A program made the position numbers and the translations under genes. The notes below the pieces were generated by a model. The model saw only the letters and a list, made by a program, of their open reading frames with translations. It ran no database searches and was not told the origin of the DNA. From Candidatus Wukongarchaeum yapensis (GTDB taxonomy: Archaea > Asgardarchaeota > Wukongarchaeia > Wukongarchaeales > Wukongarchaeaceae), in assembly GCA_016840425.1 (NCBI GenBank), contig JAEOSI010000020.1, positions 1 through 18,531 of the forward strand: a stretch of DNA of 18,531 nt. Reading direction: 5' to 3'. Numbering within the stretch: position 1 is the stretch's first letter; each line of letters opens with the position of its first letter. Positions 13,039 through 14,575 of this stretch are shown here, piece after piece.

Positions 13039-14575
13039 ATACCAGTTGATCCTGCTGGACCCCGCTGCTATCTGGCTGAGGCTTAGCTATGCAAGCCGAA
13101 CGTCCCGAGATGGCGAGACGTGGCGAACGGCTCAGTAGCACGTTGTCAACCTACCCTGAGGAGGCGGATAACCACGGGAAACTGTGCCTAATCCGCCATA
13201 AGCGAGGACTCCTGGAACGGTTCCCCGCCCAAAAGGAAGCAGACCATGCTCTGCCCTCCGCCCTAGGATGGGACTGCGGCCGATTAGGTAGTAGGTGGTA
13301 TAGAGGACCACCCAGCCCATAATCGGTACGGGCCATGAGAGTGGGAGCCCGGAGATGGGTACTGAGATAAGGACCCAGGTCTTACGGGACATAGCAAGCG
13401 CGGAACCTCCCCAATATGCGAAAGCATGAGGGGGTTAGCCAGAGTGCCATCGTAAAAGATGGCTGTGGTTAAGTGTACAAAGCTTGACTTAGAAAGAGGA
13501 GGGCAAGACTGGTGCCAGCCGCCGCGGTAAAACCAGCTCCTCGAGTGGCGGGGCAGATTATTTGGCCTAAAGCGTCCGTAGCCGGACCCGCAAGTCCCCG
13601 GTCAAATCTGGCGTCCCAAGCGTCAGGCCGCCGCGGAAACTACGGGTCTTGGGACCGAGAGAGGCCGAAGGTACTGTAGGGGTAGGGGTGAAATCCGCTG
13701 ATCCCTGCAGGACCACCGGTGGCGAAGGCGTTCGGCTGGAACGGGTCCGACGGTGAGGGACGAAGGCTAGGGGAGCGAACCGGATTAGATACCCGGGTAG
13801 TCCTAGCTGTAAACGATGCGGGCTAGGTGTGAGGGTAGTAAGTGCTACCCTAGTGCCGTAGTGAAGACGTTAAGCCCGCCGCCTGGGGAGTACGGCCGCA
13901 AGGCTGAAATCCCAGAAAACCAAAAAAAAACTTCCGGGACAGCAAACTTAAAGGAATTGACGGGGGAGCACCACAAGGGGTGGAGCCTGCGGTTCAATTG
14001 GATTCAACGCCGGCAATCTTACCGGGAGCGACAGCTGAATGACAGCCAGGCTGATGACCTTGCTTGGACTAGCTGAGAGGTGGTGCATGGCCGTCGGCAG
14101 CTCGTGCCGTGAGGTGTCCTCTTAAGTGAGGCAACGAGCGAGACCCGTACCCCTAGTTGCTAGCTGGGTTCTTAGGACCGATGAGCACACTAGGGGGACT
14201 GCCCCCGCTAAGGCGGAGGAAGGAACGGGCAACGGCAGGTCAGTATGCCCCGAATCCCCCGGGCCACACGCGGGCTACAATGGCGGCGACAGAGGGTCGC
14301 CACCCCGAAAGGGGAAGCCAATCCCTAAACGCCGTCTCAGTTGGGATCGAGGGCTGAAACTCGCCCTCGTGAACATGGAATCCCTAGTAACCGCGTTTCA
14401 TAATAACGCGGTGAATACGTCCCTGCTCCTTGTACACACTGCCCGTCGCTCCACGCGAGGCGGGTATGCCCGAGGCGCTTTCGACTTCGGCCGGGAGTGT
14501 CGAAGGTGTGCTCGCTGAGTGGGGAGAAGTCGTAACAAGGTAGCCGTAGGGGAACCTGCGGCTGGATCACCTCCT
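13039..14575 (+). rRNA. rrs: Archaeal 16S rRNA gene, intron-containing, not followed by tRNA-Ala or 23S
   Basis: 5' ATACCAGTTGATCCTGCTGG, GTGCCAGCCGCCGCGGTAA, ATTAGATACCCGGGTAGTCC, AAGTCGTAACAAGGTAGCC, and 3' GGATCACCTCCT. Compensatory base changes in helices indicate a functional gene. The 5' end is approximate. Confidence 0.99.
13909..13945 (+). other. 37-nt BHB-type intron in 16S rRNA at E. coli position ~908, no homing endonuclease
   Basis: Removing it restores the conserved GGCTGAAACTTAAAGG. Canonical BHB: AAG/CTT outer helix, GCTG(13903-06)/CAGC(13940-43) 4-bp helix, AAA bulges 13907-09 and 13944-46, TCCC/GGGA intron stem. Confidence 0.92.

Follow-up and report, generated by a model that had tools for sequence, protein, structure and literature searches.

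The only 16S rRNA gene found in the genome of Candidatus Wukongarchaeum yapensis, an Asgard archaeon, carries 37 extra nucleotides after E. coli position 908, and the question raised by this locus is what the insert is and what becomes of it in the RNA. Positions 908 and 909 belong to helix 27 and adjoin the decoding centre, where an insert of 37 nt is expected not to be tolerated. The stretch of DNA that was analysed, hereafter the window, is 18,531 nt long and corresponds to positions 1–18,531 (forward strand) of contig JAEOSI010000020.1 of assembly GCA_016840425.1, a metagenome-assembled genome (MAG) of 2.16 Mb in 277 contigs and 92% complete. An earlier note had described the insert as a bulge-helix-bulge (BHB) intron. 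The results reported here show that it is a real, canonical BHB intron without an open reading frame (ORF), and that in all likelihood it is spliced out by EndA and RtcB; cleavage and ligation, like what becomes of the intron afterwards, are inferred.

Position and boundaries of the insert

The 16S rRNA gene was located at 13039–14575, on the forward strand, by its match to the Rfam family RF01959 (SSU_rRNA_archaea; 1390.7 bits, model positions 1–1478), and is 1500 nt long when the insert is left out. In alignments it is about 80–82% identical to six of eight other Asgard 16S genes, and the 23S gene of the same genome lies on a different contig. The cmscan alignment showed a single clean 37-nt insertion between ...GGCUGAAA and CUUAAAGGAAUUG. 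When the gene was aligned with the eight Asgard 16S genes, only two private stretches of at least 5 nt were observed, 13907–13943 and 14477–14481, the first of which is the same insert shifted within a run of A. The register of the insert is ambiguous within this run, and it is the BHB motif that places it at 13909–13945 of the forward strand, where it is present in single copy.

Counting from the target of the 907–926 primer, exon 1 ends with A908 (13908) and exon 2 starts with A909 (13946); the name "locus 908" follows the convention of Jay and Inskeep (2015). Excision of 13909–13945 gives GGCUGAAACUUAAAGG, which is the consensus of both the Rfam model and the intron-less relatives, so that cuts after 13908 and 13945 do regenerate the mature sequence, as had been claimed. 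The primer target itself is intact at 13944–13963 of the forward strand, where an exact pattern match was found whose first two bases are the terminal AA of the intron; the prediction that these two bases recreate the site was therefore correct.

No ORF was found in the insert, and 37 nt are too short for any endonuclease, in keeping with the earlier description of an intron devoid of a homing endonuclease. A mobile rRNA intron of the homing-endonuclease type was ruled out for the same reason, and a group I or group II self-splicing intron was discarded because 37 nt are far too few for a catalytic core. The SSU rRNA was the only Rfam family that reached the gathering score in the window, in which no tRNA genes were found. 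When the intron was searched by BLAST in the host genome, only A-rich low-complexity matches were obtained, and for this reason it is not regarded as a repeated element. As for the 23S gene, no private insert of at least 12 nt was found in comparison with four Asgard 23S genes.

Some other positions of this 16S gene are also unusual. It has A at E. coli position 923 (GGAATTGACGG, window position 13960) and U at 1393 (14433), a pair of the bacterial and eukaryotic type instead of the archaeal G:C. At position 1400 (14440), counted from the 1392–1406 primer site, there is U and not the near-universal C. A923 is also present in G002, a genome of the same order as the host.

Folding of the insert and its flanks

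As read from the sequence, the insert and its flanks fold as a canonical hBHBh' motif, all elements of which lie on the forward strand. The outer exon helix h is formed by AAG (13900–13902) and CUU (13947–13949) and was kept in a constrained fold. The central helix H, of 4 bp, is formed by the exon strand GCUG (13903–13906) and the intron strand CAGC (13940–13943). The 5' arm of the intron helix h' (13910–13917; UCCC, A mismatch, GAA) pairs with the 3' arm (13932–13939; UUC, C mismatch, GGGA), so that 13910–13913 are opposite 13936–13939 (UCCC:GGGA) and 13915–13917 opposite 13932–13934 (GAA:UUC), with an A·C mismatch in between. The 5' bulge (AAA, 13907–13909) and the 3' bulge (AAA, 13944–13946) contain the predicted cuts, after 13908 and after 13945, respectively, and h' is closed by an A-rich hairpin loop of 14 nt (13918–13931). 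In the BHB motifs of tRNAs each bulge is located 3' of its strand of the central helix, and the topology observed here is the same. Both flanking helices are short in the host copy, h' consisting of 4 bp, a mismatch and 3 bp, and h of 3 bp, a feature that counts against the intron reading.

The minimum-energy fold of the 52 nt from 13899 to 13950 consists of H, a bulge and h', with the loop at 13918–13931, and has an energy of −10.7 kcal/mol (z −2.46). When the insert was shuffled 200,000 times, an H of 4 bp accompanied by an h' of at least 4 bp was obtained with a frequency of 5e-6, and in random 37-mers at 37% (genomic) GC with one of 5e-4; a chance origin of the motif is unlikely. Pairing, fold and shuffles thus confirm both the canonical BHB reported earlier at 13899–13950 and the description of the intron as a short hairpin with an A-rich loop.

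When folding was carried out over 81 nt, including more of the upstream exon, the BHB conformer was not the one of minimum energy (−9.4 vs. −18.4 kcal/mol). Its competitors are the helix-27 hairpin and the pairing of GGGG (13885–88) with the UCCC of the intron. The same holds for all inserts found at the 908 site (see below), in which the BHB is sub-optimal by 0.8–16.8 kcal/mol, with a median of 5.1 and a deficit of 7.0 in the host copy. Since every intron at 908 shows this handicap, the energy deficit was not counted against splicing, and thermodynamics was rejected as an argument against the BHB.

A family of short inserts at locus 908

A collection of genomes from 185,579 species was searched with an exact pattern made of the conserved exon ends separated by a gap of 24–54 nt. 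This search gave 71 matches in 71 species genomes, corresponding to 69 distinct inserts, all at exactly the 908 site. The titles of the records refer to Woese-, Pace-, Micr- and Nanoarchaeota, Bathyarchaeia, Nitrososphaerales, Thor-, Hermod- and Promethearchaeota, and further to Hadarchaeota, Thermoplasmata and Methanosarcinales. Some 16S contigs with a 908 mini-intron come from MAGs with bacterial titles (Dormiibacterota, Acidobacteriota, Methylomirabilota, Deferrimicrobium and "bacterium"; L046, L056, L057, L063 and L090), and these archaeal contigs have probably been mis-binned.

In the following figures it should be considered that kin among the 69 inserts are not independent and that the exon ends are set by the search pattern itself, while conservation on the intron side is not imposed by it. 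With the inserts anchored at their ends, the four pairs of H were standard in 96% of cells, as compared to 7–49% when the partner was slid by 1–3 positions; the first six pairs of h' were standard in 85.5% of cells, as compared to 32–47% when slid. Each position of h' shows five to six different types of standard pair, and the fourth pair of H varies among G-U, G-C and A-U, tracking a G/A polymorphism of the exon. The motif is therefore kept by compensatory change among distinct inserts at the same site. Some members have bulges not made of A only (e.g., AAU and UCA), and in these the mature sequence is restored exclusively when each bulge is cut after its second base. On this basis, the cuts in the host copy are placed at 13908/13909 and 13945/13946; cutting here two bases into each bulge gives back the universal GGCUGAA|ACUUAAAGG.

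The family bears directly on the possibility that the 37 nt are not removed at all, but form a small expansion segment of the mature 16S rRNA. Such segments exist in Asgard rRNAs, where they have been reported in the LSU and not in the SSU (PMC7594248). However, the 69 inserts have unrelated sequences and lengths, and only the geometry of the BHB and its register are conserved among them; a retained hairpin would have no need of a 4-bp helix with exon positions 903–906, which disrupts helix 27. The site, moreover, is in the functional core. We consider retention highly improbable.

The same data weigh on the idea that the insert is an artefact of assembly or binning, or that the gene is decaying as a pseudogene, in favour of which one could invoke the fragmentation of this MAG into 277 contigs. 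The gene nonetheless matches, in the rest of its length, the whole model with 1390.7 bits, and no other 16S was found in the genome; a BHB in perfect register is not what an artefact is expected to give, and inserts of the same kind are present in independent assemblies of 71 species. This explanation is extremely unlikely. The host copy is instead a genuine intron and one instance of a common 908 pattern that had apparently not been described.

No homology was observed between the interior of the intron and the other 68 inserts, the best global score being 7.5 with a null median of 6.0 and a 90th percentile of 8.5. In scans of metagenome contigs, neither an allele of this lineage with the A923 signature nor an insert with ATCC...GGACAGCAR ends was matched, and no near-identical allele was seen.

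Splicing machinery and proposed processing

The host genome contains one gene for EndA, a 203-aa ORF that matches PF01974 with 96.9 bits and TIGR00324 with 97.4 bits (cut-off 59.6). A tblastn search of the 92%-complete genome gave no second EndA paralogue, and that only one subunit gene was found is a point against the proposed splicing. RtcB was also found (PF01139, 586 bits).

A second BHB motif is located in the processing stem of the 16S rRNA, a long stem formed by the leader (12810–12891), which is A/C-rich, and the trailer (14582–14645), which is G/U-rich. In this canonical BHB, the helices formed by 12832–37 with 14628–33 and by 12845–52 with 14613–20 flank an H made of GCAG (12838–41) and CUGC (14621–24), with bulges AAA (12842–44) and UCA (14625–27). 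Since this motif is on the same primary transcript, EndA is expected to act on the precursor anyway.

The two BHBs of the transcript resemble each other to some extent. The intron starts with ATCCCAG..AGAAAAC, and in the processing stem the leader side of the BHB (12832–12848) reads ATCCCAGCAGAAAAC; both motifs (12832–12848 and 13909–13920) have a UCCC/GGGA-type helix beside a 4-bp GC(U/A)G helix. Intron and leader arm have two 7-mers in common, which are not significant alone.

According to the mechanism that we propose, in the pre-rRNA the exon sequence GCUG (903–906), which is part of helix 27 in the mature RNA, would pair with the CAGC located close to the intron's 3' end. The resulting 4-bp helix would be flanked by the two AAA bulges, the intron hairpin and the 3-bp exon helix. 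EndA would then cleave after 13908 and after 13945, and RtcB would ligate the exons to give GGCUGAA|ACUUAAAGG. The 37-nt intron would probably be circularised by RtcB and then decay.

All the evidence on the BHB fits cleavage either with or without ligation, and one may ask whether EndA cuts the motif and the exons stay apart, leaving a mature 16S rRNA fragmented at 908, as happens with bacterial intervening sequences. Yet RtcB is present in the genome, exon ligation is the rule for those archaeal rRNA BHB introns that have been studied to date (reviewed in PMC4496867), and a break at this point would fall in helix 27, beside the decoding centre. An unligated 16S rRNA is thus very unlikely. 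Even when cutting without ligation, retention of the insert and artefact are taken jointly, they remain an improbable account of the locus, and splicing by EndA and RtcB is by far the preferred one.

Public sequencing runs were also considered. At most 0.46 of the words of the gene were present in any of them, and four runs were compared as contigs (one of DNA and three of RNA or probable RNA); the contigs obtained were from other organisms, and none is listed as covering the intron. A skip of 37 nt was seen in the RNA runs with sides of only 25–28 nt, and in the DNA run in a contig that has 19 differences upstream and so comes from another archaeon, one lacking the intron. Because of this contig's differences and of sides that measured 21–30 nt, the intron-less joints were assigned to other organisms.

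In one RNA run (X17), the two ends of the 16S rRNA, 3' (14575) and 5' (13039), are connected in a metatranscriptome contig of 400 nt, with about 237 nt in between. This contig shows 7 differences in 114 nt, so it comes from a relative. A circular pre-16S rRNA cut at the processing-stem BHB of the window would have about 246 nt between the two ends.

Locus 908 in other Asgard archaea

In a survey of relatives, which the earlier note had proposed as a check, locus 908 was seen to be empty in some genomes and occupied in others, either by different mini-introns or by longer introns without an ORF. The site is uninterrupted in 57 of 400 Asgard genomes. Inserts of 30–47 nt are present at 908 in a family of Thorarchaeota (f6, many genomes), in a family of Hermodarchaeota (f12) and in family f24. 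The only other genome of the host's order, G002, has an ORF-less intron of 310 nt at this site, with the same BHB, an h' of 10 bp and CAGU; only short stop-to-stop frames were seen in it, and no apparent remnant of an endonuclease. An ORF-less intron of 146 nt, again with this BHB, is found in G227, and a gap of about 290 nt at the 908 site in G074.

Three introns interrupt the 16S gene of G134 (C71:1100–2250, minus strand), one of about 31 nt at about position 781, a 43-nt intron at 908 and, at 919, a third of about 620 nt. This third intron contains an ORF of about 190 codons in which two LAGLIDADG-like motifs were read by eye.

Other inserts were noticed close to this site. One of them, 31 nt long, was seen in G040 (C5, around 333655); it follows approximately A914, some six bases downstream of 908 and outside the 13 published loci, and inspection by hand gave no clean canonical BHB for it. 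In a Hermodarchaeota 16S gene with a 31-nt 908 intron, another insert, of about 42 nt, was noted some 90 nt further downstream (G022:C142:4818–4860).

Comparison with known BHB introns

The survey of Jay and Inskeep (2015; PMC4496867) describes 13 intron loci in the 16S genes of Thermoproteales, Desulfurococcales and Aigarchaeota, and defines as "HP" the short (<50 nt) BHB introns that form a hairpin, such as Pog.S1205 of Pyrobaculum oguniense. At locus 908 it lists no intron of the HP type, but four endonuclease-coding introns and six partial or remnant ones. That 908 is a used 16S locus, as stated in the earlier note, is therefore published, for Pyrobaculum, Caldivirga, Aeropyrum and Caldiarchaeum. 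The host intron has the features of the HP type, being a 37-nt hairpin that maintains the BHB at a published locus. Like the HP introns, it is shorter than 50 nt, has no ORF, is distributed patchily among relatives and is situated in a conserved region of the 16S gene that overlaps universal primer sites; it differs from them in its Asgard host and in its unusually weak hairpin, with a 14-nt A-rich loop (PMC4496867). With the LAGLIDADG-coding 908 introns of the four genera mentioned above (PMC4496867) it has in common the locus and BHB splicing; in contrast to them, it has neither an ORF nor a detectable remnant of one, and cannot home.

The BHB introns of Asgard tRNA genes have been treated in PMC11291895 and in bioRxiv 10.64898/2026.10.13.758758, neither of which covers rRNA. 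They share with the intron described here the phylum, the motif, the enzymes and a similar size range, whereas the host gene in the present case is that of the 16S rRNA. The BHB of the pre-16S processing stem is on the same transcript and is a substrate of the same enzyme, but it frees the whole 16S rRNA for circularisation and maturation, and removes no internal sequence. In a full-text literature search of incomplete coverage, BHB introns of the 16S gene were not seen to be reported for Asgard archaea, Bathyarchaeia or DPANN. The element is therefore of a known type, in a lineage for which we found no published example.

The earlier suggestion that the intron would extend the known range holds in that the host is an Asgard archaeon, outside the published lineages, so that Asgard archaea join the hosts of 16S rRNA BHB introns. 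The extension does not concern one lineage, however, but about 70 species in many archaeal groups. ORF-less hairpin introns at 908 are common across uncultured archaea, including Asgard, Bathyarchaeia, Nitrososphaerales, DPANN, Hadarchaeota and Thermoplasmata, and no paper describing this breadth was found in the searchable literature. We regard the breadth of the family as a more interesting result than the host copy.

From a practical point of view, the 908 site underlies commonly used primers and probes, namely 906F and 907R/926R, and adjoins Arch915. Depending on the last bases of the intron, amplicons are lost or become 30–50 nt longer, and may then be discarded by aligners or chimera filters. 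The presence of a non-mobile intron in a single-copy rRNA gene, together with empty, mini and 146–310-nt alleles in relatives, also offers material for the study of how BHB introns decay or persist.

A more speculative possibility, to which we give little credit, is that the hairpin introns of locus 908, far from being neutral relics, are a maintained checkpoint in the assembly of the small subunit. In such a scheme, which seems to us improbable, the intron would sequester positions 903–906 (and here also pair its UCCC with GGGG 885–888), keeping the helix-27 "switch" in a non-native state until EndA and RtcB act. If true, this would account for the persistence of ORF-less inserts at exactly 908 in many archaeal phyla.

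Composition and origin of the intron

The intron is composed of 19 A, 10 C, 5 G and 3 T, and in this respect is like the A/C-rich leader (51% A, 26% C) and unlike the G-rich exons. The stretch 13914–13931, which includes the loop, the A of the A·C mismatch and the GAA pairs, contains 14 A, 3 C, 1 G and no T. Relative to a sequence fully complementary to the 3' arm (UCCCGGAAGU), the 5' arm (UCCCAGAAAA) carries two changes from G to A and one from U to A. This pattern suggests a once-longer hairpin that may have been eroding under the local strand bias. The earlier view of a minimal or relic intron stands to the extent that 37 nt and an eroded-looking hairpin would fit a relic.

Having no homing endonuclease, the intron has probably been inherited vertically and is drifting. 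That it might descend from an endonuclease-coding intron of locus 908 is put forward here as a hypothesis only.

The strand skew is very strong in this region, and the AT skew flips across the 16S gene, from values of +0.57 to +0.62 upstream (11000–13000) to values of −0.10 to −0.23 downstream (15000–18000), and the loop of the intron has the same A/C bias as the region upstream of the gene.
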